A stretch of DNA of 64,000 nt from Thermoproteota archaeon (GTDB lineage Archaea > Asgardarchaeota > Njordarchaeia > Njordarchaeales > Panguiarchaeaceae): the NCBI GenBank assembly GCA_024720975.1, contig JANJXX010000005.1:1-64000 (forward strand), written 5' to 3'. Position 1 is the stretch's first letter; each line of letters begins with the position of its first letter. The position numbers were made by a program, and so were the translations under genes. This document shows, in pieces, positions 36,752-54,923 of this stretch. The notes under the pieces are model-generated. The model saw only the letters and a list, made by a program, of their open reading frames with translations, made no database searches and was not told the origin of the DNA.

Positions 36752-36972
36752 ATCAAGTTAATAAACAGCTCACATCTATTTCTTTGATGCATCTCGAAAC
36801 CGAAATAAGTTTGAGTATCAACATACCTTTGAAAGTCGTTAAACAGCGTTTTCAACTCAATTTCTAGCAGATTCTAAAATAATTAGACAAACGCTGAAAC
36901 GGATCCTAATTTGACATTTTCATAGCAATGGAAAGCATACTACGGGCTCTTAGGCTCTTTTGCAAATGAAAA

Positions 36973-38310: not shown

Positions 38311-38595
38311 TTTACGCAGATACCTTATCAGTTATGACACCTAGCTAATCAAACTACGCCTCTCAATGGTTCGAAAAGCTTGAAAAACCCAAACCATAAA
38401 ATTGACAAAAATTCGTCAAATATCCTTAAGTACACAGTAATAAAGCTTTTTTAGACACAAGTAGCATTTATCTAGATAGATCTCGATTCAAAGTGATTCG
38501 ATGAGCCGGTAATTTCCAAATGGTTGAGACTTCTATCGCGGGTTCCCCATAGCCATATATAGATTCTTTGCGCTTTTGTCTAAGTAGGTAACATG

Positions 38596-38920
38596 TTGGA
38601 CTGTTTTCTTTGTGAACTTTTTAAGCTATTTTAGCTACTACAGATACATAGAAACAAAAGAGAAACCAGTGAGCATAAAGATTTTTATACCTTAATTCTA
38701 TATGAACTGATATTAGGCTCTCGCCTCAATGACGGCGTGGTGGTCATCAGAGGCGGGAGGATACACCTGTCTCTCGAGGCGGGCTTAGTGGTGCCCGTCG
38801 ATGTAGCTCCCGATGACCCTGCGACAAATGAGCAGGTGCTGAGGGAGAAGCCCGTGTCGAGTATATCTATGATATTTAAAATACCTAAACAAACCCAAAT
38901 AAGCGACACGGACAACCACT
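38596..38920 (+). mobile_element. Non-autonomous tnpB-derived mini-element copy 1 (promoter + tnpB 5' remnant + putative omegaRNA)
   Basis: Shares the left segment GACTG...TTTTTAAGCT...TAC..GAA and a ~200-nt right segment (CGCCTCAATGACGG...CAACCACT) with two other copies. Confidence 0.75.
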
Positions 38921-39024
38921 TAATGATGATTTTATATTTGTCTTAAGCTACTGCAATATCATAGTTGATTTCCTAATGTATTATTGTTGGAATAGAGTAT
39001 CGACTGAGTCCCGTGGTGAAATTA

Positions 39025-39711
39025 ATGAGCGAACAGAAAGGGGAAGAATCCAAAATGTCAGAAGAATCGCAAGTCGAGGCGGAAGCTGAGAAGATCCTCA
39101 AAGAACTTGAAGCTGGCGAGATTAAGCTTTTTGATAGATGGAGTTGGAAAAACATAGTTGTAAGGGATCCGGGTCTTGTAACGTATATATCTTTAAAACC
39201 TATGTATGTTCCTCATAGCTTTGGTAGGCACGAAAAAACGCGTTTTGCGAAGGCGAAAGTTAATATAGTTGAGAGATTGATAAATAGATTAATGACACCG
39301 GGCAGAGAAAAGGGTCAACCTAAGACCGGCAGGTTTACTGGTAAAAAACTTCATGCCATGAAAATTGTAGAGGCAGCATTTGAAATAATAGAAAAATTGA
39401 CAAAGGAGAATCCTATACAGGTATTCGTGAGAGCAGTGGAAAATGTTGCTCCGAGAGAGGACTATACATCTTTCAGAGTTGCAGGAATTATCAAGAAATT
39501 TGCAGTTGATATAAGTCCGCAGAGAAGGGTAGATTTAGCTCTTAAATTCATAGTATTAGGTGCTAGGCAACGTGCATGGAGATCACCAATTAGTATAGCC
39601 GAAGCCCTTGCAGAGGAGATAATTGAAGCAGCAAAGGGTCCAGATAATGTAAACTCAATAGCCGTAAGCAAAAAGATAGAATTAGAAAGGATAGCAGAAG
39701 CCGCCAGATGA
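39025..39711 (+). CDS. rps7: 30S ribosomal protein uS7
   Basis: KLFDRW, PHSFGRH, IVERLIN, NPIQV, PRED, VDISPQRRVD, ERIAEAAR. Confidence 0.96.
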   Translation: MSEQKGEESKMSEESQVEAEAEKILKELEAGEIKLFDRWSWKNIVVRDPGLVTYISLKPMYVPHSFGRHEKTRFAKAKVNIVERLINRLMTPGREKGQPKTGRFTGKKLHAMKIVEAAFEIIEKLTKENPIQVFVRAVENVAPREDYTSFRVAGIIKKFAVDISPQRRVDLALKFIVLGARQRAWRSPISIAEALAEEIIEAAKGPDNVNSIAVSKKIELERIAEAAR

Positions 39712-39713
39712 TA

Positions 39714-40466
39714 CTATTCCACAGTTTTCAAAAATTCTTCTATTGCTTCTATCGTTTGCTTAAGCATAGCTGAGAATAGTCTTTCCCCCTTTTCCCTTGA
39801 TGCTCTACTAGGATAGCCCAGCGCACCAGTATCGGTAAATTCTATTGTTCTCCAGGGATATATAGCTCTGCTCTTGCTTCGAAAATCGAGATGTTTACCC
39901 AAATGACGGAGCTTTGGATCGATAACCTTGTTAAGACGTACTAGATTAGGTTCTTCGAATAGCATTATGGATGTTTCAAATTCACAAGCATGTCCCCATA
40001 CATCGCTCTCAAGAATTTCTTTTACTGTGTCGTTAATTAGTTCCCAAGGATTAATAAGGAGAGCATTGATCTTATATTCAAATTTCAATTTCCTAACAGC
40101 TTCTGAAAGTGCATTAGTATTACCCCCATGTCCATTTATAATTATTATGGCTCGAACGCCATGCTTTGCTAAACTATTTGCAATTTCACAAACGAGTCTG
40201 ATAAGAGTCTCAGAGGAAATTGTTATTGTTCCTGGAAAATCCATGTGATGCTCAGAGACACCATAATACACCGGAGGAAGAACAAGTATAGAACCACCAA
40301 AATTCTTGGCTACTTCCAGGGAGAATTTGTATGCACTTATTGTATCAGTTATTAAGGGCAAATGATATGCGTGTTGTTCCGTGCTTCCGATGGGTAAGAT
40401 AGCGGCTCTTAATCTGGGAATAGCATTCTTGATTTCGTCCCAACTACAGAATCCCCATTCATGCAT
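39714..40466 (-). CDS. Creatininase/MftE family amidohydrolase
   Basis: PIGSTEQH..HLP..TD, NGHGGN, HACEFETS. Confidence 0.9.
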   Translation of the reverse strand: MHEWGFCSWDEIKNAIPRLRAAILPIGSTEQHAYHLPLITDTISAYKFSLEVAKNFGGSILVLPPVYYGVSEHHMDFPGTITISSETLIRLVCEIANSLAKHGVRAIIIINGHGGNTNALSEAVRKLKFEYKINALLINPWELINDTVKEILESDVWGHACEFETSIMLFEEPNLVRLNKVIDPKLRHLGKHLDFRSKSRAIYPWRTIEFTDTGALGYPSRASREKGERLFSAMLKQTIEAIEEFLKTVE

Positions 40467-40627
40467 ATAAAATCCCTAGCACTAATTGCAGAATAGTTAG
40501 TCTCAAAATAAGATCCAGTAGAGTTTCTTTCAACTGAGAACAGAATTCAGCACTTAATTGCTCGTATTTTAAAAAGGTTATTTGGACTTAACAACCTAGC
40601 AAATATACCATTGAACGGTGAAAAACA

Positions 40628-40945
40628 ATGGCCGGAACAGAAGCTCCCACAATATATGTTGGAAAGAAGCCCATCGTTAGGTATCTAATGGCCGCGATTT
40701 CAATCCTATTGAATGAAAAGCCCGAAAAGCTCCGCATTAGTGCACGCGGGCGCATGATAAGCAAGGCTGTCGATGTAGCAGAAATGCTCAAAACACGCTA
40801 TTTGCCTGGGATAGTTGATATAGATGCGATAAAAACTGGTACAGAAGAACTTCAAGATCCCAACCAACCCGGTAGAGTTAACAGAGTCTCAACAATAGAA
40901 ATCACCCTAAGAAGAACCGGCGAAATAGGAATTTCTAGAAGATAA
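40628..40945 (+). CDS. albA: DNA/RNA-binding protein Alba
   Basis: IYVGKKP, ARGRMISKAVDVAE, VSTIEI. Confidence 0.93.
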   Translation: MAGTEAPTIYVGKKPIVRYLMAAISILLNEKPEKLRISARGRMISKAVDVAEMLKTRYLPGIVDIDAIKTGTEELQDPNQPGRVNRVSTIEITLRRTGEIGISRR

Positions 40946-41335
40946 AAACTAGCTTCTGTGCAGTCAGCCACTCTTTTTTCATTCCTCATTTATCAGACTA
41001 TTATATTAATTTCTGCTGCCTTCATCTATCGAACTAGGATGACGACCCAATCCTAGTAATCTAACAATAGTAATACGTCTAGAACCCTTAACTTTAGATT
41101 AACCACTCTCTAATGTGGGTATACTCCACTTCTCCGGCTATTGGTCGTTATTCCGGATGATATCCTACAGTTCATATCCTAATAGGAACCCAGCCAGCGC
41201 AAAGAAACTTTACCAGGCCGTGCCATAAGCTTTTATAATCATAGCCTTCCAGAGAGCGTAGTACCCTTGAAAAATCTCCAGCCTTTGGGTTAAAGCAAGG
41301 TATATATGCCTATAACTTAAGATAAAAAGTAACAA

Positions 41336-41661
41336 GACTGTGTCTTCCGTAAAAGTTTTTAAGCTGTTTTAGCTACTATAGGTACTTGGAATCAGATTCA
41401 AGTGCAAGAAATGCGGATTCGAGTTTAACTCACACTACGTAGCTTGCCTAAACCTCTTCTCTCGCCTCAATGACGGCGTGGTAGCCATCAGAGGCGGGAG
41501 GATATATGCATACCTCGAGGCGGGCTTAGTGGTGCCCGTCGATGTAGCTCCCGATGACCCTGCGATAGATGAGCAGGTGGCGAGGGAGAAGCCCGTGTCG
41601 ATAATACCCAAGATAATCAAAACACCTGAACAAACCCAAATAAGCGACACGGGCAACCACT
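41336..41661 (+). mobile_element. Non-autonomous tnpB-derived mini-element copy 2 (retains Zn-finger/RuvC-III remnant)
   Basis: From 41394 reads RFKCKKCGFEFNSHYVACLNLFSRLNDG, a TnpB-type C-terminus. Shares promoter and tail with copies 1 and 3; abuts the rps12 stop codon. Confidence 0.8.
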
Positions 41662-42102
41662 CTATCTCTTCTCTTTCTTCTTGCGGCCAGATACAAGCTC
41701 ATATAGGGATATTCCATTAACCTTAATTACACGGTATTTTACACCGGGAATATCGCCAAACGAGCGTCCACGAACTCCTCCTATGGGTTGAATTAGAACC
41801 TCATCATGCTCATCAATCATTAAAAGTCCACCGTCATAAGGTACAAAGGCAGTTACAATTTTCCCATTTTTCTTTAATTTTACCTTCACACACTTTCTAA
41901 GAGCGCCTGTTGGTTTTCGTGCCTCGACTCCAACTTTTTTGAGGACAATCCCTAACGCCTGCGGAGCTCCCTCAAGTGGATCAAACTTCTTCTTGAATCT
42001 TAGGACTCTCCTCTTATAATCGAGGTCAGCCCATCGTGCTTTACTCCTCTTTTTCCTCAGTATCCTTACTGCAAACTCTCCCCTTGGTGATTTCGTTACC
42101 AT
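41662..42102 (-). CDS. rps12: 30S ribosomal protein uS12
   Basis: [30 protein letters not shown]. Start set at ATG 42102 after GAGGAAGGAG. Confidence 0.95.
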
Positions 42103-42360
42103 TTCTCCTTCCTCATTCTTATACATGCTTGCTAGGTAGTACACTATCATTTCAGGCTTTTTAAGGTAAGTCATTGCTTCACCTGGTTTGAATATGACCT
42201 ATCAGCTATAGAGCTCAAGTAGATGGCTTAGTTTAAAGAACTTTAAAGTCGTGGTTACCTAAGATACCTTTCCTGCATTGAAGTAAGTCAGAAGAAGATA
42301 CCCTACTCTAGCTCACTCAATAATCAAGTTTCTCGGCAACCGCTAAGTCTACAAGTCTAA

Positions 42361-42420
42361 CTTAAAATTTCAAAATTCTTAGCAAAATTTCTTAAAAATT
42401 TCAAAAATTTCTTTTAAAAA
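42361..42420. repeat. Phased AAAATTTC repeats upstream of secreted protease gene
   Basis: Five imperfect AAAATT(T)C units at roughly 10-bp spacing. Confidence 0.6.
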
Positions 42421-42480
42421 AGCTTTTTCAACTATACTGTATCAGAATATTATTCCTGATAACTTCCCCAAGGCGATTCC

Positions 42481-44115
42481 ATGAAAGCGAAGGCAATAGC
42501 AATCCTAAGTTTCCTTCTAGTAGCCGCCCTTACTGCAATAAGTGTAAGCACAGTCTACGCAAAAAGCTATAATAAAACGCTTCCCGATTTCTCTGATTTC
42601 CTAGAGTCTAGAGACGTGGCTGCTATAATTTACGAATTTGTAGGATCCCTCAGTGCTGGCAAGGAAACTCCCCAATACAGCTTCTCCGTCGACTCTACAG
42701 TTACTAAAATAGAAGTAACCCTCAATATGCCAAGTGGTACTGACTTTGACTTGTCCGTCTGGGATCCCCAAGGCAGGCGTACTGGAGGCTGGACTTCGAC
42801 GGATAAGTCTGTAAAAACTCAGATTCCAAATTCGAAATATTCAGGAGACTCAGCGAATCCTGAGTGGGTCACTGTAAGTCCTCCTGCAAGTACAGGTACT
42901 TGGAAGACTAGTTGTTATGCGTACTCAGGTTCTGGCAACTTCAAGATCACAGTAAAACTGTACGTCACGTCAACAAGCCAGTATAAGTACATATTCTCGG
43001 GCTCAGTTAGCAGTGGCAAGGATAGCACGCAACACTCATTTAGTGTTCCATCTACAGCGACCAAAGTTGAAGTAACCCTTAATATGCCAAGTGGTACTGA
43101 CTTTGACCTATCAGTTTGGGATGCTCAAAACAGGCGTACTGGAGGCTGGACTTCGACGGATAAGTCTGTGAAAAATCAAATTCCAAACGCGCAGTACTCA
43201 GGATACTCAGCGAATCCCGAGAAGATTACCGTAAGCCCTATAGACTCCACGTCAGTTGGTACTTGGAAGACCAGTTGCTATGCATACTCAGGTTCTGGAA
43301 CATACACAATAACAGCCGTGGTCACTCTGTCTACTAGCAACGGTGGTGGAAGTAGTGGAGGCAGTAATGGAGGTAGCAGTGGAAGTGGCGATGGTGTAGT
43401 TAGAAAGTGGGCTGTGATAGTTGGTATATCTGACTATAAGGCAATCTCAGACTTGTCATACTGTGATGAGGATGCAACGGATTGGTATAACTTCTTAACA
43501 GGAAAACTCGGCTGGCCCTCCTCGAACATCAAAGTTTATGGAGATGGCAGTAGTAGCAGTTATTATCCAAAGTATGATGGTAAGGCGACGGAGTATAACG
43601 TCAAGCAGGCATTGAACTGGCTCGTAACAACGGCTGATGCCGATGATATAATCGCATTCATATCATCCGGACACGGAAGTGGAGACGGTAAAGGAAACTC
43701 ATACCTCTGCATGTGGGACAGTGGAGCTGGCGAGAACGGTCAAGATGGAAATCTCTGGGATTACGAGCTAGCAGCAATACTCAAGAATGCAATTGCCGCT
43801 AAAATATTCGTATTCCTGGACCATTGCTACTCCGGTGGATTTGGAAACGACTTAATGAGCATGCCCAATAGTGCTAGAGTATACCTGACGACAACATGTA
43901 CTGAAAAAGGATATGGATATGATGATCCAAATCACAAAAACGGTGCATGGACATATTACTTCCTAGAGTACTCATGGATAGGAAAATATGGAGGATCCCC
44001 AGACGTAGCTCTAGAAGATGTATACGCATACGCTAAAAGTGCATACCCATACAGTGGAGGCGACGCACCACAGCAATTCGATGGAAACCCCAACAGTCCA
44101 TTCTACCTCAAATAG
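42481..44115 (+). CDS. Secreted caspase-family (clan CD, C14-like) protease with two PPC-like domains
   Basis: Signal peptide; two repeats with TDFDL/GTW; G/S linker; KWAVIVGISDY, SGHG, FLDHCYSG His-Cys dyad. Confidence 0.8.
   Translation: MKAKAIAILSFLLVAALTAISVSTVYAKSYNKTLPDFSDFLESRDVAAIIYEFVGSLSAGKETPQYSFSVDSTVTKIEVTLNMPSGTDFDLSVWDPQGRRTGGWTSTDKSVKTQIPNSKYSGDSANPEWVTVSPPASTGTWKTSCYAYSGSGNFKITVKLYVTSTSQYKYIFSGSVSSGKDSTQHSFSVPSTATKVEVTLNMPSGTDFDLSVWDAQNRRTGGWTSTDKSVKNQIPNAQYSGYSANPEKITVSPIDSTSVGTWKTSCYAYSGSGTYTITAVVTLSTSNGGGSSGGSNGGSSGSGDGVVRKWAVIVGISDYKAISDLSYCDEDATDWYNFLTGKLGWPSSNIKVYGDGSSSSYYPKYDGKATEYNVKQALNWLVTTADADDIIAFISSGHGSGDGKGNSYLCMWDSGAGENGQDGNLWDYELAAILKNAIAAKIFVFLDHCYSGGFGNDLMSMPNSARVYLTTTCTEKGYGYDDPNHKNGAWTYYFLEYSWIGKYGGSPDVALEDVYAYAKSAYPYSGGDAPQQFDGNPNSPFYLK
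42630..43330 (+). repeat. Intragenic tandem domain duplication (357-bp offset)
   Basis: GAAGTAACCCT(C/T)AATATGCCAAGTGGTACTGACTTTGAC at 42712 and 43069, plus further identical blocks. Boundaries approximate. Confidence 0.85.
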
Positions 44116-44395
44116 TATTTGATCCTTTCCTACATTCCTTTTTCTAGTCCTTTCTCCCCTCTGATTAAGTTTGTATCAGGAGTGCACTTACAAGGCTGCC
44201 TTCTCGGGTTTAGAAGTTTCTCAATCACTCATTACTGTTAATTGACTTAGCGCAGACTTATATCATGAGAATCGGAAGATTTGCAAAAATATTTCAAGAC
44301 TTAATTGCATTTGGAGAAAGGCTATAATGAAGTACCTTGGGTCTTCAATATAAGTGGATCAGTCCTTTACAAGAGACTTGTCGTCCGGGTTTAAT

Positions 44396-44797
44396 TTATC
44401 GCCTATGCTGTGTGGAGAATTTGTATGGTAGTAATCTAGAGAGTTCTAGTATTACAGGTTCTCCTTCCTCTGAGCAAATAATCACCTCAAAATTGTCGTC
44501 AACGAACTCACTCATGACCTGTCTACAGGCACCGCATGGGGATGGGTTGATGTCAGGTGAATATATGAGAATTCGGTAGAATTTCTTTGCCCCCTCTGAG
44601 ATGGCTTTAAAAAATGCTACCCTTTCAGCACATACGGTCAGTCCATATGATGCATTTTCTATATTGACTCCAACAAAGTAGCCTTTGTCTGTTTCAAGCA
44701 CAGCGGAAACTCTTATTCTAGAGTAGGGGGCGTATGAGTTCTGAATGTATTGTTTTGCAATTTCTAAAAATCTCTCAATAAAGAGTTCTCTAGCCAT
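44396..44797 (-). CDS. cdd: Cytidine deaminase
   Basis: SYAPYS, GVNIENASY, CAERVA, SPCGACRQ. Confidence 0.95.
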   Translation of the reverse strand: MARELFIERFLEIAKQYIQNSYAPYSRIRVSAVLETDKGYFVGVNIENASYGLTVCAERVAFFKAISEGAKKFYRILIYSPDINPSPCGACRQVMSEFVDDNFEVIICSEEGEPVILELSRLLPYKFSTQHRR

Positions 44798-45147
44798 CGG
44801 ATAACACCTTAGGTCTACTTTGATCATGAGAATGAATTTTTGTAAGGTCCTAGGAGGCGTATAAATCACTATTTTTGATTATTAGTCGTCACTTAATTTG
44901 AAATTGCGGGTAGCTTAACTTAGCTTCTCTCTAAAAGGTAAACGACTTTAAGCTAGGGCAAGCGAATGAGTATTAAAAACGTACTAATAATGACTAGCCG
45001 TTAAGTAAGTCAGATATCGTTAGAAGTCTTTAAAAAGTGAGAATGAGTAAATCTACTATATCGTGCTAATTGAATATGATATCCGATTATCTTCCTCAAC
45101 TCTAGCTTATAGGTATAGTCTACTTAATCTTCCACAGGAGGAGAGCT

Positions 45148-45543
45148 TTGAGTAGTGATATTCACGATAAGCTGCACGAAATTGCCAACTCATACGATAT
45201 AATATCACTCTACAGAATGGAAAAAGACGGGGAAGTCTTGCTCTATGTATTGACTTACGATGAGCTAAACTATGAGAAAAAGAAAGAGATCGAAAAAAGT
45301 TTAATCAGCTTATTTGAACCTACTAAATGCACTGTACTTTTTGTCTCAGATCTTCCTCCTCAGCATCTTAAACAAATGGTCGAGGGGTCAGAAATAATTT
45401 TCGTTCGTGACAAAAACTTGAGTGACTCAATACTAGCTGGAATACTTACTCTGAGTCTCGACTTTCAATACCTTGCAAACGAGGGAATGAGCCTAATACT
45501 GAGGAGAAAAATAGCTGAAGCTCTAACCTCACGCGGTGAATAG
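45148..45543 (+). CDS. Degenerate MNT (MntA-like) nucleotidyltransferase-fold protein
   Basis: Size and position upstream of HEPN; LFVSDLPP...IIFVRD...DFQ pattern; lacks GS and DxD. Confidence 0.5.
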   Translation: MSSDIHDKLHEIANSYDIISLYRMEKDGEVLLYVLTYDELNYEKKKEIEKSLISLFEPTKCTVLFVSDLPPQHLKQMVEGSEIIFVRDKNLSDSILAGILTLSLDFQYLANEGMSLILRRKIAEALTSRGE

Positions 45544-45970
45544 GATGTTAGAGAGTTTATCGAGCGACCCGCTAAAGAGAGCATGCAAGATCATTGATTG
45601 TGCTCTTGAAACTCTTAAAAAAGTTCTAGGAAAGAGTGATAGCGAGGTGCTTTCATCAGAGCTTGAAACTTATGCGCTTAAGGGCTCGGCATTGTCTCTT
45701 GTTCAAGGTTTTTTAGATCTTGCGAACTATCTATCCGCGATTAAAGAGTATCATCCACTGAACTACAGTGATATGATCTTGTACCTGATTCAGAATGATA
45801 TTGTTGATAAGGAATACGAGAAGCTTGCAATAAAATTGGTAGATTTAAGGAATAAGCTCTTATTTGTGAATAGTGGCGAATCCGTAGGGGATCTTCTCAA
45901 TTTCCTCCGCGAAAATCTTAAGCGAATAGAAGAATTGTGCAACTCCCTGATTAGAGCATGTCTCTCGTGA
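45536..45970 (+). CDS. Degenerate HEPN/DUF86 (HepT-like) protein
   Basis: VQGFLDLANYL, PLNYSDMI, LRNKLLF (His of RxxxxH replaced). Confidence 0.65.
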   Translation: MNRMLESLSSDPLKRACKIIDCALETLKKVLGKSDSEVLSSELETYALKGSALSLVQGFLDLANYLSAIKEYHPLNYSDMILYLIQNDIVDKEYEKLAIKLVDLRNKLLFVNSGESVGDLLNFLRENLKRIEELCNSLIRACLS

Positions 45971-45976
45971 AAGCGG

Positions 45977-46261
45977 TTGACTACTATGTCAAGAGGTAAA
46001 AAGGCAAGAATATGGGAGCGCCCACTTAGAATTGCTATTTTGGAAATTCTGGAGAGAAAGGGGGGTAGAATAACGGAGAAGGAACTCACGGATAAACTTA
46101 AGGAAATGTATACATCCATCTCAGAACATGAGATAAATGCTGAGTTAATGCATTTAGAATTAAACAGGCTAATCTATGTTGACTCATCTACGCCAACGAA
46201 TAAAGTAATAGAGCTTCTCACAGAAAAGAAATGGTTCAAAGCTATAGGGGGAACGGAGTGA
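45977..46261 (+). CDS. Small winged-helix protein
   Basis: AILEIL....G.ITEKEL...L...INAELMHLE....IYV. Confidence 0.6.
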   Translation: MTTMSRGKKARIWERPLRIAILEILERKGGRITEKELTDKLKEMYTSISEHEINAELMHLELNRLIYVDSSTPTNKVIELLTEKKWFKAIGGTE

Positions 46262-47268
46262 TTCCACGCAAATTACCTCTAGGGAAAGTGCCTATAGATG
46301 TTCTTAAAAGGCTACTAGAACTAGCGCCACTAAGCGAAGATGTGATCGTAGGACCAGGTATTGGAATAGATGCGGCGATCATGAGATCAGAAGACGATTA
46401 TATTATAGCTGCCTGTGATCCAATAACAGGTGCATCAAAAGAAATTGGCTGGCTATCGGTCCATGTAAACGCAAACGACATATACGCGAGTGCCGGAAAA
46501 CCTAGGTGGTACGTAGCAACTCTCCTTTTTCCCAAAGACTCAACAGAGGAGCAAATAGTAGCAATCATGCGGGGCATAAGAGAAGGTTTAGAAGAAACAG
46601 GCGCATCGCTTGTCGCTGGGCATACAGAGCTTACTAACAGAGTTACCGAAGCCATTGTTGTAGGAACAATGATAGGAAGTCCATTTATTCCGGGCAAGTA
46701 TATTTCAAATAGGAGTGCGAAAGTGGGGGATGCGATAATAATGACCAAAGGTGCTGGAATAGAGGGTACATGGATTCTACTGGAAGAAAGGGGTAGCGAA
46801 CTAGAACTACCCGCAAGAATCCTGAGTAAAATACCAGAACTTAAGAAAATGGTAAGTATCAGAAAGGACGTTCAAGCTCTCCTTAGAATAGGTATAAATA
46901 ATATTCATGCGATGCACGACGCCACTGAGGGAGGGGTCCTAGGAGCCATATATGAAGTATCGGAGGCGTCCAGGGTAGGCTTCGAAATTTATGAGGAGAG
47001 CATTATTGTTAGAGAAGAGACTCAAATACTGTCTGAGATTCTGGGCATAGACCCCCTTAAGTTGATATCATCTGGCACGCTTCTAGCTACCGTCGATAAG
47101 GACTATGCAGAGGATGCCATAAAAGTGCTTAAAAAGGAAGGCATAGATTCATCAGTAATAGGGTATATAAGGGAGAGCGACAGGATATTAGTTAAGAAGG
47201 CTGGTGAAAGACTGCGCATTTCATCGCCACCCACAGATGAACTTTGGAGAATAATTGGAAGCTGTTAA
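46258..47268 (+). CDS. AIR synthase / HypE-like family protein
   Basis: GPGIGIDAA, DPITG, NANDI, AGHTE, MHDATEGG, DELW. Confidence 0.88.
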   Translation: MIPRKLPLGKVPIDVLKRLLELAPLSEDVIVGPGIGIDAAIMRSEDDYIIAACDPITGASKEIGWLSVHVNANDIYASAGKPRWYVATLLFPKDSTEEQIVAIMRGIREGLEETGASLVAGHTELTNRVTEAIVVGTMIGSPFIPGKYISNRSAKVGDAIIMTKGAGIEGTWILLEERGSELELPARILSKIPELKKMVSIRKDVQALLRIGINNIHAMHDATEGGVLGAIYEVSEASRVGFEIYEESIIVREETQILSEILGIDPLKLISSGTLLATVDKDYAEDAIKVLKKEGIDSSVIGYIRESDRILVKKAGERLRISSPPTDELWRIIGSC

Positions 47269-48512
47269 AATTGGTTGCGATAATCGGCTTAGCAACACGT
47301 CTTCAGATAGATTCTGTTGAGAACCAATACGAATACATCAAGCAGAACTTAGCAGACTCATATGATGAAGACTTTGGTATTTTAACGAATGAAGCTTCAC
47401 TACGAAAACTCATCACGAGACTAAAGAATCACAACATTATAATATCAGTTGTGCTCACTGGTGGAACTAAAAAGCTGATAGTCAACCTGGGAAAGCTAAG
47501 GAAGCCTATGATTCTAGTATCAAATGACAAACAAAATGCACTTTCATCATCTTTGCATGCACTCTATATCCTTAGAGATCACAACAAAAAAATTCTACAC
47601 ATACAAGGCGACCTGAAGACGGTACCGTGGAATTCGGTAAGAAAAGTTATCTCAGGAATAAATGGACTATTATCAAACCCGGCAAGAAATATAGTACTTA
47701 TCGGCGTTTCTAGCAACTTTCTAGAGGAGGAAAAATATAACCTACATTCATTAAAAGATAAATTTGGCTTGTCCGTAAAAACGGTGTCTCTTAGGAAGTT
47801 TCTTAAGCAGTTAACGAAAGCTGAACCCGATGAAGGCGCTATATCAAAGATGTTAAAAATTCTAGAAAAAACGAAGACGGATGATATCTGCGAGAAGATA
47901 GCTAAAATTCACGCCGTTAGCAAACTGTTAATGAAGGGATCCATTGCTGGGGGAATCAGATGTTTTCCAATAATTTCAAAAGTTGGAGTAACTCCCTGCT
48001 TTGTTGTCTCTGATTTTCTTGATGAAGGAAAAATTTTCGGATGTGAAGCAGATTTAGCGGCTATAATATCAATGCTTCTAGCTAAGTACATAACCGGGGA
48101 GATACCATTTGTAGCAAATCCGATAACTCTAGAAAAAACTGGTAGACTAACTTTGGCTCATTGTACGGCCGCAACAAAGCTTTTTTCATCGGATGCGAAG
48201 TTATCCGAACATTTCGAATCAAAGAAAGGATATGCTGTGGAGGGAAGTTTTAGAGAGAACTCAACAATAACGCTTTTGAAAGTAGATCCCGGGTTTTCAA
48301 AACTCCTTTTGATCAGAGGACAAATTCTCGTCGGAAAGCGATTTTCCAACGAATTTTGTAGGAATCAAGTTGTAGTAGGCTTCGAGAAAGAGCCACTAAG
48401 AATACTTTCCGGAGAGTTTGCGCACCATTTGATAATGATATATGGGGATCATACAACCGAACTTAAATACGCGGCAGAACTATTAGGACTTGAACTCGTG
48501 AATTATTACTAA
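47244..48512 (+). CDS. L-fucose/L-arabinose isomerase-like family protein
   Basis: TGGT, RCF, TPC, GCEAD, AHCT, HFES, CRNQ, HH...YGD. Confidence 0.75.
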   Translation: MENNWKLLKLVAIIGLATRLQIDSVENQYEYIKQNLADSYDEDFGILTNEASLRKLITRLKNHNIIISVVLTGGTKKLIVNLGKLRKPMILVSNDKQNALSSSLHALYILRDHNKKILHIQGDLKTVPWNSVRKVISGINGLLSNPARNIVLIGVSSNFLEEEKYNLHSLKDKFGLSVKTVSLRKFLKQLTKAEPDEGAISKMLKILEKTKTDDICEKIAKIHAVSKLLMKGSIAGGIRCFPIISKVGVTPCFVVSDFLDEGKIFGCEADLAAIISMLLAKYITGEIPFVANPITLEKTGRLTLAHCTAATKLFSSDAKLSEHFESKKGYAVEGSFRENSTITLLKVDPGFSKLLLIRGQILVGKRFSNEFCRNQVVVGFEKEPLRILSGEFAHHLIMIYGDHTTELKYAAELLGLELVNYY

Positions 48513-48621
48513 CCACCTTCTTAGTTACTTAGAATAATTCTCGTCATGATTAAGAAATCAGTGGTAAGAGTTCCAAAAAAGTGGGAGAGTATTATTTTAG
48601 ATGCCAAGTGGTGTGGCTTCA

Positions 48622-48661
48622 ATGACCCCGAGGAGGATTGTAGTTGCCTCCTCGGGGCCAT
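48622..48661 (-). terminator. GC-rich hairpin immediately after the speD stop
   Basis: Perfect 11-bp arms CCCCGAGGAGG/CCTCCTCGGGG, extending to 15 bp with a G-U pair on the minus strand. Terminator role is inferred. Confidence 0.55.
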
Positions 48662-49020
48662 CAAGCACGTTGCTTTTCTGTGTGGGGCTCCCCCCGCATA
48701 AGAGTAATACTGAAATATTTTTCAGGCTTTAGCGATTCGATGATTAGCTGAGAGGCTTTGTGCGGGTCTATACCCCGACAAGTAAAGACGTCAACTGCAG
48801 CATAACAGAATTCAGGCCATGTATGTATTGAGAGATGCGACTCAGCTATAGCCACTATGCCCGTTACGCCTTGCGGATTAAACTTGTGAAAGTGATATGC
48901 AAGCACAGTACCGCCAGCCTCTTTACTGGCCCTTAAAAATAACTCTTCCAGAAACTCTTTGTCATTTAATAACTTCGGATCTACCCCATGTAGTTCTATA
49001 ATTATGTGTTTTCCCAGCAT
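48661..49020 (-). CDS. speD: Pyruvoyl-dependent S-adenosylmethionine decarboxylase proenzyme (SpeD/SpeH family)
   Basis: LGKH, FNPQGVT, AESHLSIHTWPE, DVFTC. Arginine-decarboxylase paralogue not excluded. Confidence 0.85.
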   Translation of the reverse strand: MLGKHIIIELHGVDPKLLNDKEFLEELFLRASKEAGGTVLAYHFHKFNPQGVTGIVAIAESHLSIHTWPEFCYAAVDVFTCRGIDPHKASQLIIESLKPEKYFSITLMRGEPHTEKQRA

Positions 49021-49193
49021 CTTCCACCGCCGGTGGATATATGCTTAGAGTTATTAGAGATATATTTAACTTAAAAAAGTGTAATTGCGTTACTCGTCTC
49101 GAAATTCATGCAACACAATAATTGTTTCTATATTGCTTAAAGAATCTTCTGTTGTTTAACCTAGGAAAAAAAGAATTACTGAGGTAATGCACA

Positions 49194-50282
49194 ATGACTA
49201 GGGAAAAAGCCTATGATTTGTTGCTTGAGATCGCTAAAAATGCAGAGAAAAAAACAGGTATTCCCGCATATCCTCGCTCAGTTTTAAATGTTATGTCAGC
49301 AGCAGCACTTTCTAACAATGTCTTTTGGGTGGCTAGATACTCTCGGGAAGCCTTCAATCTTCTTATCGAAATTCTCAAGGAATTAGAAAAAAGAAACCTG
49401 GTAAATCTGCAGGCTGGTGTTGAACTTACAGAAGAGGGGAAGAAGCTTCTACAAGATGTTGGGTACGAGATCAAGTTTAGAATCTGTGACCATTGCAAAG
49501 GACGAACTATACTGTTTGACGAGATCTTGGATAAAGACGTTGTGAGAGAATTTATTAAGATACAAGAAAATAGACCCCCAGCAATCCAGGAATTTGATCA
49601 GGGTTTTGTTACTTCAGAGACAACCCTTGCAAGAGTAGCGTACATGTACTACAGAGGGGACTTAAGAAATAGAGACATAATAATACTAGGAGATGATGAC
49701 TTACTTTCGATAGCTGTGGGGCTCACAAATTTAGCGAATAGGATCGTTGTAATAGACATAGATAAAAGGTTAACTGAATTCATACAAAGAGTGTCTAACG
49801 AATATGGACTTCGCATAGAGGTTTATACAGAGGATTTGAGACGCCCGCTACCCGAGGATCTCTGCCGAAAGTTTGATGTATTTCAGACAGATCCGCTAGA
49901 AAGCTTGAATGGATTTAAAGTTTTTGTAGGCCGTGGAATCGCTGCACTTAGAGGGGAAAGATGCGCTGGCTACTTTTATCTCACATTAGTTGATGCTTCG
50001 ATAGACAAATGGAGAGAAATTCAAAGGCTTTTGTTGACAGAGTTCAATGTAGTCATCACTGATATAATACCTGACTTCTCAGAATACGTGAACTGGAATT
50101 TGTATTTCGAGGAAATGCAAGCATGGAAAATCCTTCCAGAATCCCTAAGGCAAATACCAAGAGATGGCTGGTATGTTTCAACGCTCTTCAGAATCGAGAC
50201 TCTTCGAGGCTCGCGGGGATTATTCGAGACCATATCTTCGGAGGAAAACATATATTATGATAAAGAGTTAGCATCAGCATGA
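49194..50282 (+). CDS. bpsA: Branched-chain polyamine synthase (DUF43)
   Basis: RPPA...FDQG, LGDDDL, DID.R, DLRRPLP, TDP, F..RG; divergent from speD. Confidence 0.88.
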   Translation: MTREKAYDLLLEIAKNAEKKTGIPAYPRSVLNVMSAAALSNNVFWVARYSREAFNLLIEILKELEKRNLVNLQAGVELTEEGKKLLQDVGYEIKFRICDHCKGRTILFDEILDKDVVREFIKIQENRPPAIQEFDQGFVTSETTLARVAYMYYRGDLRNRDIIILGDDDLLSIAVGLTNLANRIVVIDIDKRLTEFIQRVSNEYGLRIEVYTEDLRRPLPEDLCRKFDVFQTDPLESLNGFKVFVGRGIAALRGERCAGYFYLTLVDASIDKWREIQRLLLTEFNVVITDIIPDFSEYVNWNLYFEEMQAWKILPESLRQIPRDGWYVSTLFRIETLRGSRGLFETISSEENIYYDKELASA

Positions 50283-51706
50283 CAAAACAATTTCTCCCAG
50301 CTAGATCTTGCATAAATACATCCAGGATCCGGTGCCAAGAAATCTCCAAAATAGTTGTAAGCTCTAGCACGGCATCCTCCACACACGTATTTATATTGGC
50401 ATTGTCCGCATTCACCCTTAAGTAAATCTCGATTGCGAAGCGACTCCAGAACCTTATTTTCTCTCCAGAGCTTTTCGAAATCATCCTCGAGGATATTGCC
50501 GATTTTCTTTCTAAGGAAAACGCAGGGATAGATATCACCATTGGGTTCTAGTGCCAAATAGACACGCCCCGCACCGCAACCTCCTATTAATTCTAGCATG
50601 CTACCAAAACGCTTAGATTGTTCCCTAATTGTGTAGAAGTGGCCGGCTATAAACGGTTTTTCTGAGAATTCCAATCCTATCTCATAGGCGACCGCGGCAT
50701 ATTGTGGGGCTGTTGAAGCGGCAGAGAAACCATTATAAAGAGCGTTAGCTAGTATTTTCAAGACCTCCCAGCGTTCCTCGGGACTCAGATCCCATTCTAC
50801 AATATCTCGCCCCCTACCGACTGGGACGTAGTTGTATGCCATGAACATGTCAACTTTGAGCTCATTCTTGGCAAATTCAAGCATACGCTGGATTTCTTTG
50901 TGGTTCCTCTTTGTAATCGTCATGGAGACTTCGACAATAATGTTATGCTTCTTGAGGTTTTTTATGCCCCTAACAGCTTTTTCCCAGGCTCCAGGTACGC
51001 CTCTAAATTCATCATGGAATTGACTACTAGGCGAATCTAGACTAACTTGAGCAAAGATTAAACCACTTTTAGCGAGCTTCTCAGCGATTTCATCTGTTAT
51101 TAAAGTAGCATTCGTAGCCATGGCCAGATACATGTCATAATCATGGGCTCTTTTTAGAACTTCCCAGAAACCTGAGCCAAGTATAGGTTCGCCACCTGAA
51201 AGAGCAAGCATAGCTACGCCAGAATCTGCAAGCGTGTCAAGAGCTCTCAATTTTTCCTCGACGCTCATTTCTGGTAATTCTATGCCTGCTGATGCATAAC
51301 AATGCTTGCATTTTAAGTTACATCGGAAAGTGAAATCCCAGACTATCAGTAATGGAGCACCAGAGGAAAAAGGAACGCGCACGCCAAATATTTTGAAACC
51401 CTTAAGTAGGCTAGCTATGATTTTTCTTGCATAAGGCAACTTGAGCATGTTGAGAAATTCATTCTTATCGACATCAAATTCTTTAATCAACCTGTCCATG
51501 TAGTACCTGAAAAATGGGTAAACAACATAAGCCACTAAAGATTCTCTAACATCCTCACCACAATACATAGCGAGAAGGTATTCAATATAAGTTCTCTTTT
51601 TACCGCTCTTTCGGAGTAAGAATGACAGCGCTAGCTCTGAAAGCCGCGACTCGGCTAGTCGCTTTAAATTCATAATAACTTTTTTTGCATCCGTAGTAGT
51701 ACTCAT
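50255..51706 (-). CDS. Radical SAM/SPASM domain protein
   Basis: CNLKCKHC, SGGEP, GCGAG, DIYPC, CGQC...CGGCRARA...DPGC. Confidence 0.92.
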   Translation of the reverse strand: MSTTTDAKKVIMNLKRLAESRLSELALSFLLRKSGKKRTYIEYLLAMYCGEDVRESLVAYVVYPFFRYYMDRLIKEFDVDKNEFLNMLKLPYARKIIASLLKGFKIFGVRVPFSSGAPLLIVWDFTFRCNLKCKHCYASAGIELPEMSVEEKLRALDTLADSGVAMLALSGGEPILGSGFWEVLKRAHDYDMYLAMATNATLITDEIAEKLAKSGLIFAQVSLDSPSSQFHDEFRGVPGAWEKAVRGIKNLKKHNIIVEVSMTITKRNHKEIQRMLEFAKNELKVDMFMAYNYVPVGRGRDIVEWDLSPEERWEVLKILANALYNGFSAASTAPQYAAVAYEIGLEFSEKPFIAGHFYTIREQSKRFGSMLELIGGCGAGRVYLALEPNGDIYPCVFLRKKIGNILEDDFEKLWRENKVLESLRNRDLLKGECGQCQYKYVCGGCRARAYNYFGDFLAPDPGCIYARSSWEKLFCHADANSLS

Positions 51707-51781
51707 TTGAGATTCAGTACACGAAAATGCATTCAAAATAGTCACCTTAAGTAATCATTAAGATTTATTCATTACTATATA

Positions 51782-51801
51782 TCATTAACTAAAGTTAATG
51801 A
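51782..51801. promoter_or_regulatory. Perfect inverted repeat, candidate operator upstream of radical SAM gene
   Basis: TCATTAACT-AA-AGTTAATGA (9-bp arms). Confidence 0.45.
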
Positions 51802-51925
51802 CATTATTGAAGAAACTAAGTGAGCATTATAGTAGTCCTGGTCCGAAGAAAATGACTGCTATCTCTAATGGCATCGTAATTAGCGAGCAAGACGGGAGAT
51901 TAATGCTTAGGGAAATAAAAACGAC

Positions 51926-53608
51926 TTAGCCAACGGATTTGAAGCGCCATTTACTATAAGCCCGACGCGCGCTTATTATTGCATGTGCATTAAGGCTCAT
52001 CCAATACATCCCAGATTCTTCGAAGAGCTTTGCTGCTTTCTTAAGCAGTTTAATCGCTAGTTTTTCCCTCTCGTCAATGATTTTGTTGGAGATTTCGTTG
52101 AGAAATGATGCGTAAACGGGAGCGCTTCTGGGGAGTAAAAGTTTTTCAGCAGTCTTTACGGTTTCTAGAAGTAGGTATTCCTGGTGATTTTGAACAGATC
52201 CTAAAGCTACTGCGAATAGTATCTCACCAAGTTCATTTGCTCGAAGTTTTGCATGCTCTAGATTGTTCAATATGTACCGAATGCCGTCAGTAAATTTTTT
52301 CTTCGAAAGATATTTGACAGCAATAATTAGGTAAAGTGGATCACTTAAACCGATCAGTCTTTCTATAGCTTTAGAGATGTCGTTCTCGCTGTCTGAGACT
52401 ATGATTGTAATGAGTGATTCTAATCCAATCTTGTGTCTGGCTTCATTAATCAACTCTGAAGTGCTACTGAAAATTTCAGTGAGCTCACGAAACTTCTCAT
52501 TGCTAGTTGCTACTTGAAAGAGCTCATTCCAAATCTCTAGGTGCTGAAGGCCGCTTATTTTGTTCTCTTTATTGAACGTTCTGATAGCATTTACCAGTAA
52601 AGTCTTAAGCCCAAGTCGCAAGGCAGCCGCGGCATATGCTTTAAAAACTCTTAGCGTACATGGTTGATCTTCAACCTCATAGCAAATGTTTATGGCCAAG
52701 TCTAGGTATGCTTGGCTACTTGATGCATCTTTGCTAAGCAAGTTTATTGCGTATTTTAGTGCAAGCTCTATTAATCCATTTCTTGCGCCTAGGTTATATA
52801 ACTTGCTGATGATCAAATTCATGATTCCTATGGATTCGATATCACACTTCTCGAGTGCAACGGCTAATATTTTAGCAAGCATGTCAGCTTGATCCTTGGT
52901 TTCGACTTTACCCAGCGCCTTCGCAATCAATTCTGGAAAAAATCCAGGAATGCATTCAACTTCGTTTATATACTCCCAGAGAGTAATTAAGAAGTTACTG
53001 AGATCATTATTGACTAAATCAAGAAATTTCTTGTTAGTTTCCTCATTCGGTAGGTACGAAAGAGCAATTCCTAGTAAACTAAAATACAGTCTAGGATCAA
53101 TAACTCTTATCTTATTGATGAAGTCGAAGCAAAGTGCATTGTTTCCTCTTTTAAGTAGCACTCGGATTAGATTTCTCGATAATAGTCTATCCTCAAAATC
53201 TGAGAATCCCCGCGATAGCAGTAGGTCAAAAACTTCGGTAGCATTCGGATTGACGAGAAATAGCTCTCTAAAATATATAACTTTGGCTTGATCAAAAGCG
53301 CTAGCATCGAATAGAGATAATAGTTCCCCGAGTTTCTCTAGATACTTCCCACTAGGAACAATTCTCTTGATAAGGTACTCAAAAATTGTAAGTGCCGCTT
53401 GTTGCATCGAAGCCTTAAGAAAAGATACTATCGCTAAACGACCATATTGTAGCATAGACTCAAGGGTGTTAGAAAGATAGAGTAACTCCCTGTAGAATTT
53501 AGCAACAGCAAACCAAATAATTCTAGATTCATATCCGATCTCAGGCAATATTGGCTCGTTTTCCAATTGTCTTAGTATGCTCCTAGCTAATTTATAATCC
53601 TTAAGCAT
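51926..53608 (-). CDS. Alpha-helical solenoid (TPR/SNAP-like) hypothetical protein
   Basis: Leu/Ala-rich amphipathic helices throughout; AIKLLKKAAKLFEESG. Confidence 0.6.
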   Translation of the reverse strand: MLKDYKLARSILRQLENEPILPEIGYESRIIWFAVAKFYRELLYLSNTLESMLQYGRLAIVSFLKASMQQAALTIFEYLIKRIVPSGKYLEKLGELLSLFDASAFDQAKVIYFRELFLVNPNATEVFDLLLSRGFSDFEDRLLSRNLIRVLLKRGNNALCFDFINKIRVIDPRLYFSLLGIALSYLPNEETNKKFLDLVNNDLSNFLITLWEYINEVECIPGFFPELIAKALGKVETKDQADMLAKILAVALEKCDIESIGIMNLIISKLYNLGARNGLIELALKYAINLLSKDASSSQAYLDLAINICYEVEDQPCTLRVFKAYAAAALRLGLKTLLVNAIRTFNKENKISGLQHLEIWNELFQVATSNEKFRELTEIFSSTSELINEARHKIGLESLITIIVSDSENDISKAIERLIGLSDPLYLIIAVKYLSKKKFTDGIRYILNNLEHAKLRANELGEILFAVALGSVQNHQEYLLLETVKTAEKLLLPRSAPVYASFLNEISNKIIDEREKLAIKLLKKAAKLFEESGMYWMSLNAHAIISARRAYSKWRFKSVG

Positions 53609-53632
53609 TTAGTAAAACCAGCTAACACCATC

Positions 53633-53903
53633 AGTGGTTGCCCGTGTTTTTTTGTTCAGGTTTGCCTAGGTGTTTTGGATAACATGAATACTATTAACAC
53701 GGGCTTCTTCCCCAGTACCTGCTTACCTATCGCGGGTCATAGAGGTACATCGACGGGCACCAACGAGCCCGCCTCGGGGGATAGACATATCCTTCTGCTC
53801 CCCCTGGTGGCTACTCTACCGTCATTGAGGCGGGACACTTTTTGATTCCAAGTACCTATGGTAGTTAAAATAGCTTAAAAACTTTACAGAGAAAACAGTC
53901 CAA
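53633..53903 (-). mobile_element. Non-autonomous tnpB-derived mini-element copy 3 (shortest)
   Basis: Reverse complement: TTGGACTG...TTTTTAAGCT...GGTACTTGGAATC joined almost directly to CCCGCCTCAATGACGG...AACACGGGCAACCACT. Confidence 0.75.
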
Positions 53904-53978
53904 GAGATTTGATGACATAAAAGCGCAGTAGTTGGAGCTTCCTAATAGCATATTGAAGAAGGATTACTGGAGTATATG

Positions 53979-54809
53979 TCAGGTACTCATGGCAATTAGC
54001 AGCTCGCGAGCAATGGCTGCTGCTAGGGTCGCTGTTGTACTTCTGAGTTCCCCTCCTGTCAGCTCTACAATATCGGCGAACTTAGGCCTTAAGTATTTTA
54101 AGTATCGTAGCAGCAAGTTAGGAGGCAGACCGAAGGGCTCCGGTGTACCAACATCTGGGGCATAAGCGGGGTCGAAAACGTCCAGGTCTAGGGAGATGTA
54201 ATCAGCTTTTTTGAAAATGTCCTTAAGTACTGCTTCATTTTCAAGTATGTCATATGTCGAGTATGCCTCAACACCAAATTCCTCCAGTGCTTTTAACTCT
54301 TCGGGGATACCAGTCCTGTAACCTAAGAGCACTACTCTGTCATAACCAAGGAGCTCACCAGCTCGCCTTAATGTGCATCCGTGCGAATACTTCAGTTCTT
54401 GATATGTATCTTCAAAATCTGGATCAGCATCAATATGCACATACATTTTAACTTGATTGTGCAAGTGCTGGAGTGTCATAATTGTTATAGAGTGATCTCC
54501 TCCAAGAAATAGGTATTTCTTTGCACCTATCGTTCCAAGTGCTTCACGAACCTTTTGCATTGTTTCTAAAAATCCGCCATGAATCACCTCAACATCTCCC
54601 CAGTCTGATATTGGAAACTCGCTGACGCTCCTCTTGAAAAACAAACTAAATTCATTTAGCGTTTTAGATGCTAACCTTATGAGTAGGGGGCCATGTCGAC
54701 TTCCAACGAAAGCAGATTGGGTACTATCAAATGGTATGCCAAGCACTGCTATGTCTAGGTTTTTTGCAGCGGGCAAACCAAAAAGGGTTACATGGTTCAA
54801 GATAGGCAT
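53979..54809 (-). CDS. Agmatinase/ureohydrolase family protein
   Basis: GIPFD, GP..IR, GGDHSIT, DADPD, SHG, DLDVFDP..AP..GTPEP.G. Confidence 0.85.
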   Translation of the reverse strand: MPILNHVTLFGLPAAKNLDIAVLGIPFDSTQSAFVGSRHGPLLIRLASKTLNEFSLFFKRSVSEFPISDWGDVEVIHGGFLETMQKVREALGTIGAKKYLFLGGDHSITIMTLQHLHNQVKMYVHIDADPDFEDTYQELKYSHGCTLRRAGELLGYDRVVLLGYRTGIPEELKALEEFGVEAYSTYDILENEAVLKDIFKKADYISLDLDVFDPAYAPDVGTPEPFGLPPNLLLRYLKYLRPKFADIVELTGGELRSTTATLAAAIARELLIAMST

Positions 54810-54923
54810 TTTTGATTACCTCCTTTATGCATAGCGGGCATATTTGACTTAAATGATAATACTTAACTACTTAACTTTGTAATTCTAAGATTAGCGAGCT
54901 TAATGACTGGAGGCATTATGATC

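Follow-up and report, generated by a model that had tools for sequence, protein, structure and literature searches.

The window analysed here, a 64,000-nucleotide stretch of archaeal DNA (C25:1-64000, from a source assembly of 1.36 Mb in 29 contigs, 81% complete and 40% G+C), carries three dispersed mini-elements without a protein gene. Based on sequence comparison, they are internal-deletion derivatives of a transposon of the IS607 family, in which a serine-recombinase gene (tnpA) precedes the guide-RNA-dependent tnpB. Each mini-element keeps the left end of the transposon, with a likely promoter, and about 200 nt of its 3′ end that behave as an omegaRNA scaffold. The mini-elements are probably functional, or recently functional, guide-RNA hitch-hikers that would rely on proteins supplied in trans.

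Three mini-elements and their IS607 parent

Alignment of the three cassettes shows a common left segment of ~60 nt beginning at GACTGT, with the TATA-like box TTTTTAAG ~20 nt inside; middles of variable length; and a common core of ~200 nt running from CGCCTCAATGACGG to CAACCAC. The flanks are unrelated, and all three copies are intergenic (Table 1). An earlier reading of the letters alone (the sequence-only reading) had placed the copies correctly, as the exact limits, the core similarity among the three (E 1e-24 to 1e-68) and the covariance-model scores confirm. With the copy-1 core as query, ten sites were recovered in the source genome (E 1e-99 to 7e-8), and the core is therefore not a chance repeat.

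This genome-wide search, which the sequence-only reading had suggested for counting copies and finding the parent, also led to the coding elements. A resident copy on contig C26 (51902-53484) has its left segment and core 1.58 kb apart, enclosing a 51-aa HTH_17/MerR-like open reading frame (ORF) and a 437-aa TnpB ORF (52139-53449; NF040570 at 105 bits, above the cut-off, and PF07282). In this copy tnpB is intact and tnpA is truncated, its helix-turn-helix (HTH) region alone being kept. It is the sole tnpB detected in the source assembly, whose inventory consists of this copy and about nine deletion derivatives; the window itself holds no full tnpB or tnpA, as had been stated. The complete parent was found in a Desulfurococcaceae metagenome-assembled genome (MAG; locus L049). 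It spans 2,018 bp from GACTGT to CAACCAC and encloses a 215-aa TnpA with HTH_17 and Resolvase domains (2397-3044; PF12728 at 54 bits, PF00239 at 95 bits) and an overlapping 436-aa TnpB (3001-4311). In the source genome, the 598-bp derivative on C11 retains the TnpA HTH and the first ~36 Resolvase residues, including YARVSS, fused to the TnpB tail. No Y1 transposase was found in the search for the parent family. Because the complete TnpA combines an HTH with a serine recombinase, the C11 derivative keeps YARVSS and no Y1 transposase was found, the parent family is, by gene content, IS607 (tnpA serine recombinase with a MerR-type HTH, then tnpB); it is neither IS200/IS605 nor the tnpB-only element first supposed.

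The middles are different leftovers of this parent. The ORF leftover noted earlier in copy 2 is indeed from TnpB (92% identity to the full-length protein) and comprises the second zinc-finger half, the RuvC-III motif with His and the tail; copy 2 as a whole is 96-98% identical to the resident C26 copy. The N-terminus proposed for copy 1 ('VSIKIFIP') is also real, but the gene is tnpA, whose 5′ leader and initial ~8 codons are retained, and not tnpB. Copy 1 matches C8:2575-2261, of the same architecture, at 87% identity over its whole length (~320 nt), and a metagenome contig (L085) at 100%. The architecture of copy 3 recurs at C24:36394-36658 (78% identity), and comparable forms occur in another genome, G019, and in metagenome contigs.

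Both ends of the element are sharply defined. Homology stops after CAACCAC in 14/14 and 29/29 aligned copies with unrelated flanks, the following base being T, C or A; the right boundary proposed earlier (CAACCACT) was within the tolerance it allowed but one base too long. Upstream of GACTGT the flanks are unrelated in 20 copies, and the preceding base is a purine in all 20 distinct insertions, with T as the next base out in 14 of them. Since AC is the sole invariant dinucleotide shared by both junctions (G(AC)TGT at the left, CC(AC)N at the right), we infer an AC crossover and a left-flank target motif of about TRGAC, a situation comparable to that of the Clostridium IS607 element, whose GG core lies within a TGGG motif.

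Close relatives of the element come from hot-spring Desulfurococcaceae and Ignisphaera MAGs. Additionally, TnpB relatives at 85-90% identity are labelled as Desulfurococcaceae, Zestosphaera, Ignisphaera, Acidilobaceae, Thermofilaceae, Thermosphaera, Bathyarchaeia and Nanopusillaceae MAGs, which indicates, at the level of protein similarity, wide lateral spread of this TnpB family among hot-spring archaea. A scan of metagenome contigs with the core pattern added 36 loci to the comparison; the viral contigs scanned with it gave no match, and the element family was not found in congeneric genomes.

Table 1. Parts of the three mini-elements (window coordinates) and deletion architectures of the family (positions on the 2,018-bp L049 reference)
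Feature	Position	Strand	Details
Copy 1 mini-element, 321 nt	38599..38919	+	left end and tnpA-start remnant, then a short spacer of no assigned origin, omegaRNA core and right end
TATA-like box TTTTTAAG, copy 1	38618..38625	+	putative left-end promoter
tnpA-start remnant, copy 1	38669..38695	+	GTG + 7 codons, then stop; aligns with tnpA 5′ end of full-length elements
OmegaRNA-like scaffold, copy 1	38720..38919	+	model R1 223 bits; 36/37 model pairs intact
Predicted guide, copy 1 (starts TTAATGATG)	38920..38939	+	predicted from sharp right-end boundary
Copy 2 mini-element, 325 nt	41336..41660	+	reference positions 56 joined to 1750; type found in window only
TATA-like box, copy 2	41356..41363	+	conserved position
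TnpB C-terminal remnant, copy 2	41394..41624	+	residues 360-436; tblastn 92% identity, E 2e-40; overlaps scaffold
OmegaRNA-like scaffold, copy 2	41461..41660	+	R1 244 bits; 37/37 pairs intact
Predicted guide, copy 2 (starts TCTATCTC)	41661..41680	+	putative; overlaps stop codon and 3′ end of convergent rpS12 (41662-42174, -)
Copy 3 mini-element, 267 nt	53634..53900	-	left end fused to scaffold at tnpA start (GTGTCC, then CGCCTC)
TATA-like box, copy 3	53874..53881	-	conserved position
OmegaRNA-like scaffold, copy 3	53634..53834	-	R1 180 bits; 34/36 pairs intact; most diverged, indels
Predicted guide, copy 3 (starts TGATGGTG)	53614..53633	-	putative; 25 nt upstream of ATG of same-strand 560-aa ORF
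Full length	reference 1-2018		L049, L081, L089, L090
tnpA catalytic domain lost	220 joined to 658		C26, L048
C11 type	368 joined to 1796		C11, L102
Copy-3 architecture	tnpA start GTGTCC or variant joined to CGCCTC at ~1817		window copy 3, C24, four in G019, L083, L096
Copy-1 type			left end, ~8 tnpA codons, ~30-nt spacer, core; window copy 1, C8
Diverged-subfamily mini-element			different left end, ~45 nt of 5′ core lost internally; L088, L109, L112
Truncated inside core	breakpoint near 1870-1875		C28, L097, L110, C23b

A conserved RNA structure at the right end

Between the tnpB stop codon of the C26 copy and its right-end boundary are 32 nt; these, with codons ~380-437 (~57 codons), make up the core. 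As the sequence-only reading had it, the core overlaps the 3′ end of tnpB and terminates at the right end of the transposon, which is the position expected of an omegaRNA. The covariance model that it had called for (R1) was built from 21 copies and contains 201 positions and 37 pairs in six helices, which carry compensatory changes. A search of the collected loci with R1 gave 53 matches, among which are members of a diverged subfamily and relatives in other genomes. In the alignment of 52 distinct copies, 93.7% of cells form pairs, compared with 38-47% when the partners are slid by 1-3 columns; changes on both sides occur in 22/37 pairs (110 cells), and 0/500 shuffles reached as high a value. 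This alignment was fitted to the model, its sequences are related and the signal comes mostly from full-length elements, all of which count against the strength of the covariation as support for a guide RNA in the mini-elements. In helix 5, two adjacent pairs each occur in four or five standard types (UA/AU/GC/CG/GU and GC/CG/AU/UA/GU). RNAalifold applied to a mixed-subfamily alignment lost two helices by misalignment, and the covariance-model alignment was used instead.

Single copies also fold well, with a single-sequence folding z of -3.7 for copy 1, and copies at 79-86% identity retain 34-36 of the 37 pairs. The ACCAC 3′ tail has its complement in a GUGGU hairpin loop in 46/47 copies; both sides are invariant, hence they show no covariation. 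Such loop-to-3′-end pairing has been described as universal for TnpB guide RNAs (10.1101/2023.11.20.567912). Moreover, TnpB residues 401-437, which helices 5-6 encode, are predicted to be disordered (model overall pLDDT, a predicted local confidence score, 79.7), and this fits a constraint on the helix 5-6 DNA at the RNA level rather than the protein level. Within the window, no Rfam family passed its gathering threshold, and on the full-length locus a search relaxed to E 1 brought up nothing relevant. The archaeal HgcC RNA family matched C26:50934-51046 (L011 35-147, -) only weakly, at 24.9 bits where the gathering threshold is 50.

The retained ~200 nt might alternatively be a double-stranded DNA binding region for the serine recombinase, with no role as RNA. 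Short inverted TnpA motifs are known at IS607 ends (10.1101/2023.11.20.567912), and here the left end contains CYGTGTC (GACTGTGTC) and the right-end region has two inverted copies of it (GCCCGTGTCG ... CGACACGGGC). However, double-stranded binding sites do not need compensatory changes in six helices, and mini-elements lacking the first 50-70 nt of the core are still present at three or more loci. In addition, for TnpA excision of the Clostridium IS607 element 40 bp at the left end and 60 bp at the right suffice (10.1101/2023.11.20.567912), so the retained ~200 nt exceeds the need in cis. A recombinase-binding role is thus very unlikely as the explanation. Because IS607 moves as double-stranded DNA and needs 60 bp of the right end, the pairing constraint and the retention of ~200 nt are better explained by RNA. 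Collectively, the pattern of conservation indicates that the core behaves as an omegaRNA scaffold.

In 14/16 left ends, the box TTTTTAAG follows an A-rich stretch and occupies a conserved position ~20 nt in from the end. In full-length elements it is ~50 nt upstream of the start of tnpA, which has a GAGGT-type ribosome-binding site, and its position suggests that it is likely the tnpA-tnpB promoter. In the mini-elements, the scaffold follows this box at a distance of ~40 nt in copy 3 and ~100 nt in copies 1 and 2. Four hot-spring metatranscriptome runs compared with window positions 36500-56400 yielded two contigs of an unrelated gene; the cassettes received no coverage, so these runs are uninformative.

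Deletion, mobility and the presumed TnpB partner

Deletions were mapped by BLAST against the L049 reference and by direct reading of the junctions. At least five architectures from two sequence subfamilies were recovered, and in every one the putative left-end promoter is retained together with 150 nt or more of the scaffold. The view that the cassettes are different internal deletions of a tnpB-bearing element, each sparing the promoter-bearing left end and an omegaRNA-like 3′ segment, is therefore upheld. The three deletions are not private to the window copies, as had been thought, since there are further examples of the copy-1 type (on C8) and of the copy-3 type (on C24 and in other genomes). 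Many 3′ breakpoints lie at 1816-1824 of the reference, the 5′ edge of the core, but, as a qualification of the sequence-only reading, a minority of copies break inside it at ~1870-1875. Junctions show 2-3-nt microhomology (TCC, CA). In the core tree, which has short branches and some weak supports, copy 3 and C24 form a group (support 96/84) with a partial element from a different lineage, and L083 and G019a/b are nested in the main full-length clade. With the copy-3 and L083/G019 forms in different clades, the design in which the left end abuts the core probably arose more than once, as judged from this tree.

The joining of the left end to the TnpB tail raises the question of a protein product, in which the TnpB C-terminal tail would be translated from the tnpA start codon. 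The copy-3 type indeed joins tnpA GTG-TCC in frame with TnpB tail codons (R-L-N-D-G...). This frame breaks after 33 codons in copy 3, the tnpA frame of copy 1 stops after 8 codons, and the L083/G019 types lack a start codon in that frame; moreover, copies 1 and 3 contain no plus-strand ORF of at least 70 aa, and the TnpB tail is predicted to be disordered. With its frames broken, a small-protein product was rejected and is scarcely credible.

Several deletion types are represented by multiple unrelated loci: copy 1 and C8; copy 3 and C24 (78%); G019a and G019b (~99%, two loci); and L088/L109/L112 (three loci). This distribution implies that the mini-elements spread after deletion, in the manner of miniature inverted-repeat transposable elements (MITEs); like non-autonomous elements, they also lack any protein gene and retain both ends of the autonomous element. 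The sequence-only reading had offered MITE-like units or guide genes serving a TnpB in trans; the multi-locus types bear out the former, and the single TnpB elsewhere in the genome could serve in trans. In L085, copy 1 with its right flank is joined leftward, exactly at the element boundary, to sequence of C5 (C5:4762). At that point C5 reads CATAGAC followed by TAGACTG, a TAGAC site, and L085, C5 and C25 share just GAC(T) at the left junction. This single case is suggestive of a left-junction rearrangement at a TAGAC site, or may be a mis-join. An exact vacant site for copy 1 or 2 could not be read in congeners, which lack the elements and whose intergenic DNA is just ~70% alike. In metagenome contig L100, a mini-element lies directly beside an apparent tRNA-gene 3′ end (GGGCCCGCCGGGATTTGAACCC) in its right flank.

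On C23:5219-7347 (L012 1020-3148, -), two genes, for an N6/N4 DNA methylase (PF01555) and a BsaWI-type restriction endonuclease (PF18643), are enclosed by a left-end-like piece on one side and the final ~85 nt of the core and right end on the other; by position, this restriction-modification pair appears to sit between element ends. In metagenome contig L086, too, an element right end has a homologue of this methylase ~1.2 kb away.

From these observations we propose the following origin and use of the mini-elements. The parent has the order left end, tnpA, tnpB, right end, and internal deletions, often at the 2-3-nt microhomologies, stripped it of its genes. They spared the left end, with a likely TATA/BRE (B-recognition element) promoter and the tnpA leader, and the 3′ ~200 nt that in the parent serve as TnpB-tail coding sequence and, putatively, as omegaRNA scaffold ending at CAACCAC. 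The TnpA serine recombinase would have mobilised the mini-elements in trans in the past, giving several loci per deletion type. Transcription from the left-end promoter would begin ~10-130 nt ahead of the scaffold and continue into the right flank, which would provide a locus-specific guide. Most likely, the single resident TnpB (C26) would load this RNA and, after excision, attack the vacated site, recognised by the left-flank motif and right flank; recombination would then restore the mini-element, according to the known logic of TnpB homing. The mini-elements would thus hitch-hike on TnpA and TnpB both.

The predicted guides agree with such a use. Against the source genome, their matches without mismatch are their own flanks only, as expected of homing guides and not of exapted regulators, and no second source-genome target was found at up to one mismatch. 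At 1-3 mismatches, the hits appear to be those expected by chance in AT-rich DNA, and none has GAC upstream.

The presumed partner has an unusual active site. In the C26 TnpB, RuvC-I D199 and RuvC-II E290 are invariant, and the third RuvC position, aligned to the catalytic RuvC-III Asp of Cas12f, is H373. D386, 13 residues beyond H373, is nearly invariant in relatives. A survey of TnpB diversity describes RuvC-III Asp-to-His branches, some of them archaeal and associated with serine recombinases, that are presumed active (PMC10691335). In its motifs, the present family fits the published 'rearranged RuvC-III' class. Nuclease activity of this TnpB is putative and is the main uncertainty in the proposed mechanism.

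If the His/Gln TnpB were instead nuclease-dead, as in TldR, the mini-elements could be dispersed guide genes for an RNA-guided DNA binder. The RuvC-III position is H or Q in 41/41 members; the copy-3 guide lies shortly upstream of a same-strand gene start, at the distance given in Table 1, and the copy-2 guide covers the end of rpS12. We regard this as highly improbable. The TnpB family is transposase-linked and mobile across many archaeal lineages, unlike the fixed TldR; D386, just past the RuvC-III helix, could complete a rearranged site, and the Asp-to-His class is described as probably active (PMC10691335). Furthermore, the context before the guide at the resident locus is the right end (CCAC) and not the left-flank motif, and a second genomic target at 0-1 mismatch is lacking.

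A more serious alternative to guide-RNA hitch-hiking is that the mini-elements are dead relics, that is, IS607 deletion derivatives that were once mobile and now drift neutrally, with no guide in use and the promoter-scaffold layout as a by-product of microhomology or of where mobility tolerates deletions. Several findings weigh on this side and against a functional role. No intact cognate TnpA serine recombinase was found in the source MAG at its 81% completeness; its TnpA homologues are truncated or catalytically altered forms only, which makes present mobility doubtful. Divergence between copies is 4-27%, C24 keeps 28/36 pairs, C23a, C23b and C28 are degraded, and some copies are truncated inside the core. 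Between copy 1 and C8, core (87%) and spacer (83%) are about equally conserved, and the putative pseudoknot loop of copy 3 reads UUGGU instead of GUGGU in a copy that also has indels. At the RuvC-III position, the 41 TnpB relatives have His (9) or Gln (32) and never Asp. Genome G019, of another family and 95% complete, carries four mini-elements (L020, L025, L028, L031; contigs C1 and C3), yet its nearest TnpB homologue is just 39% identical and its TnpA homologues are all broken, so mini-elements can persist without a cognate partner. The TCC and CA microhomologies at the junctions also agree with mere deletion. On the other hand, independent architectures in two subfamilies converge on a promoter and at least 150 nt of scaffold, above the 60 bp needed in cis; the pairs are kept in copies as diverged as 79-86% identity; and an intact 437-aa tnpB is maintained in the same genome. 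We therefore hold the relic explanation to be possible but on balance unlikely, and favour guide-RNA hitch-hiking.

As an extension of guide-RNA hitch-hiking, the repeated reduction to promoter and scaffold could reflect selection for guide-only parasites that use a TnpB encoded elsewhere and outlive or outnumber their parent, as in G019; this is a speculative idea that we consider distinctly unlikely. Were it true, and were the rewired His/Gln TnpB to bind instead of cutting, the mini-elements would be natural dispersed regulatory guide genes.

Two further features touch the transposon proteins. At C25:92225-92785 (+), 28 kb past the window end, an intact 186-aa HTH_17+Resolvase ORF has YARII in place of YARVS, with loss of the nucleophile Ser. 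It is convergent with a lone left-end-like fragment at C25:93232-93183 (-) and may, from its motif, be a domesticated or inactive IS607 TnpA. In G019, two of the mini-elements lie within ~1 kb of unrelated tnpB-like genes.

In the window, copy 1 is directly upstream of the ribosomal S7 gene (39013-39711, +), and copy 2 ends one base from the stop codon of the S12 gene; the two genes are convergent, with a creatininase-family gene and an Alba gene between them. That the elements caused this rpS12/rpS7 inversion was rejected, as congener G004 has the same convergent layout without them. In congener G003, the orthologous intergenic region lacks the ~155 nt that precede copy 1 in the window (38440-38595). 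The window also contains, at 42481-44115 (+), a 544-aa ORF whose product has a caspase (Peptidase_C14) domain.

Comparison with known systems

The parent element shares with IS607 of H. pylori and the IS607 IStron of C. botulinum a MerR-type HTH plus Resolvase TnpA overlapping TnpB, an omegaRNA at the tnpB 3′ end extending up to the right end, and short ends without long inverted repeats. A dinucleotide common to both junctions is plausible in each case, GG there and, with the target motif, putatively AC here. In contrast, the present host is a hyperthermophilic archaeon, the left end contains a likely archaeal TATA promoter, the TnpB has His/Gln at the RuvC-III Asp and a 57-aa tail, and the window copies have lost both genes.

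Short non-coding IS derivatives that arose by internal deletion and are dispersed in intergenic DNA are familiar in archaea as MITEs, for example in Sulfolobus. Classical MITEs keep only the terminal inverted repeats for a DDE transposase and no guide-RNA scaffold. Our mini-elements are likewise short intergenic deletion derivatives, but they bring a guide-RNA scaffold with them.

Closer parallels are the palindrome-associated transposable element (PATE)-like forms of IS200/IS605 in Geobacillus stearothermophilus and C. difficile (PMC10055086; Zedaveinyte et al. 2023). Meers et al. 2023 reported that minimal, protein-less IS605 PATE-like elements often encode omegaRNAs that need TnpB in trans (PMC10055086), and a C. 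difficile PATE with IStron ends has been shown in the literature. Both groups are protein-less, keep both ends, carry an omegaRNA and depend, in our case presumably, on TnpA and TnpB in trans. The PATE-like elements use single-strand 'peel-and-paste' by a Y1 transposase at palindromic hairpin ends, whereas the elements described here belong to the serine-recombinase, double-strand IS607 type, lack hairpin ends and have the left-end promoter directly before the scaffold.

The predicted RNA resembles the ISDra2 omegaRNA/reRNA and the archaeal IS1341-type sotRNAs in being a structured sense RNA over the tnpB 3′ end, with the same boundary at its end, a flank-derived guide and loop-to-3′-end complementarity. 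It differs from them in having no Rfam match and in belonging to a sequence family specific to thermophilic archaea. With TldR, the family shares the lack of a canonical catalytic residue, and its guide genes could act on host sites; however, TldR is immobile with a fixed target, while here the protein is inside a mobile element and the guides match their own flanks only.

In the literature searched, no description was found of IS607-derived mini-elements that retain an omegaRNA, or of archaeal examples. The concept is already known; what is new is the IS607 family, the archaeal host, the promoter-abutting architecture and the His/Gln TnpB partner. For annotation, such repeats are better labelled IS607-derived non-coding elements than novel RNAs. 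The natural truncation series marks a minimal left end (~55-65 nt with the TATA box) and a minimal retained scaffold (~150-200 nt), which is useful for engineering thermostable TnpB, and the system is well suited to testing the activity of a TnpB with His/Gln at RuvC-III and the possible use of TnpB homing in trans by non-autonomous elements. Collectively, these elements extend the omegaRNA-without-nuclease design from the bacterial IS605 PATEs to serine-recombinase IS607 elements of hyperthermophilic archaea.

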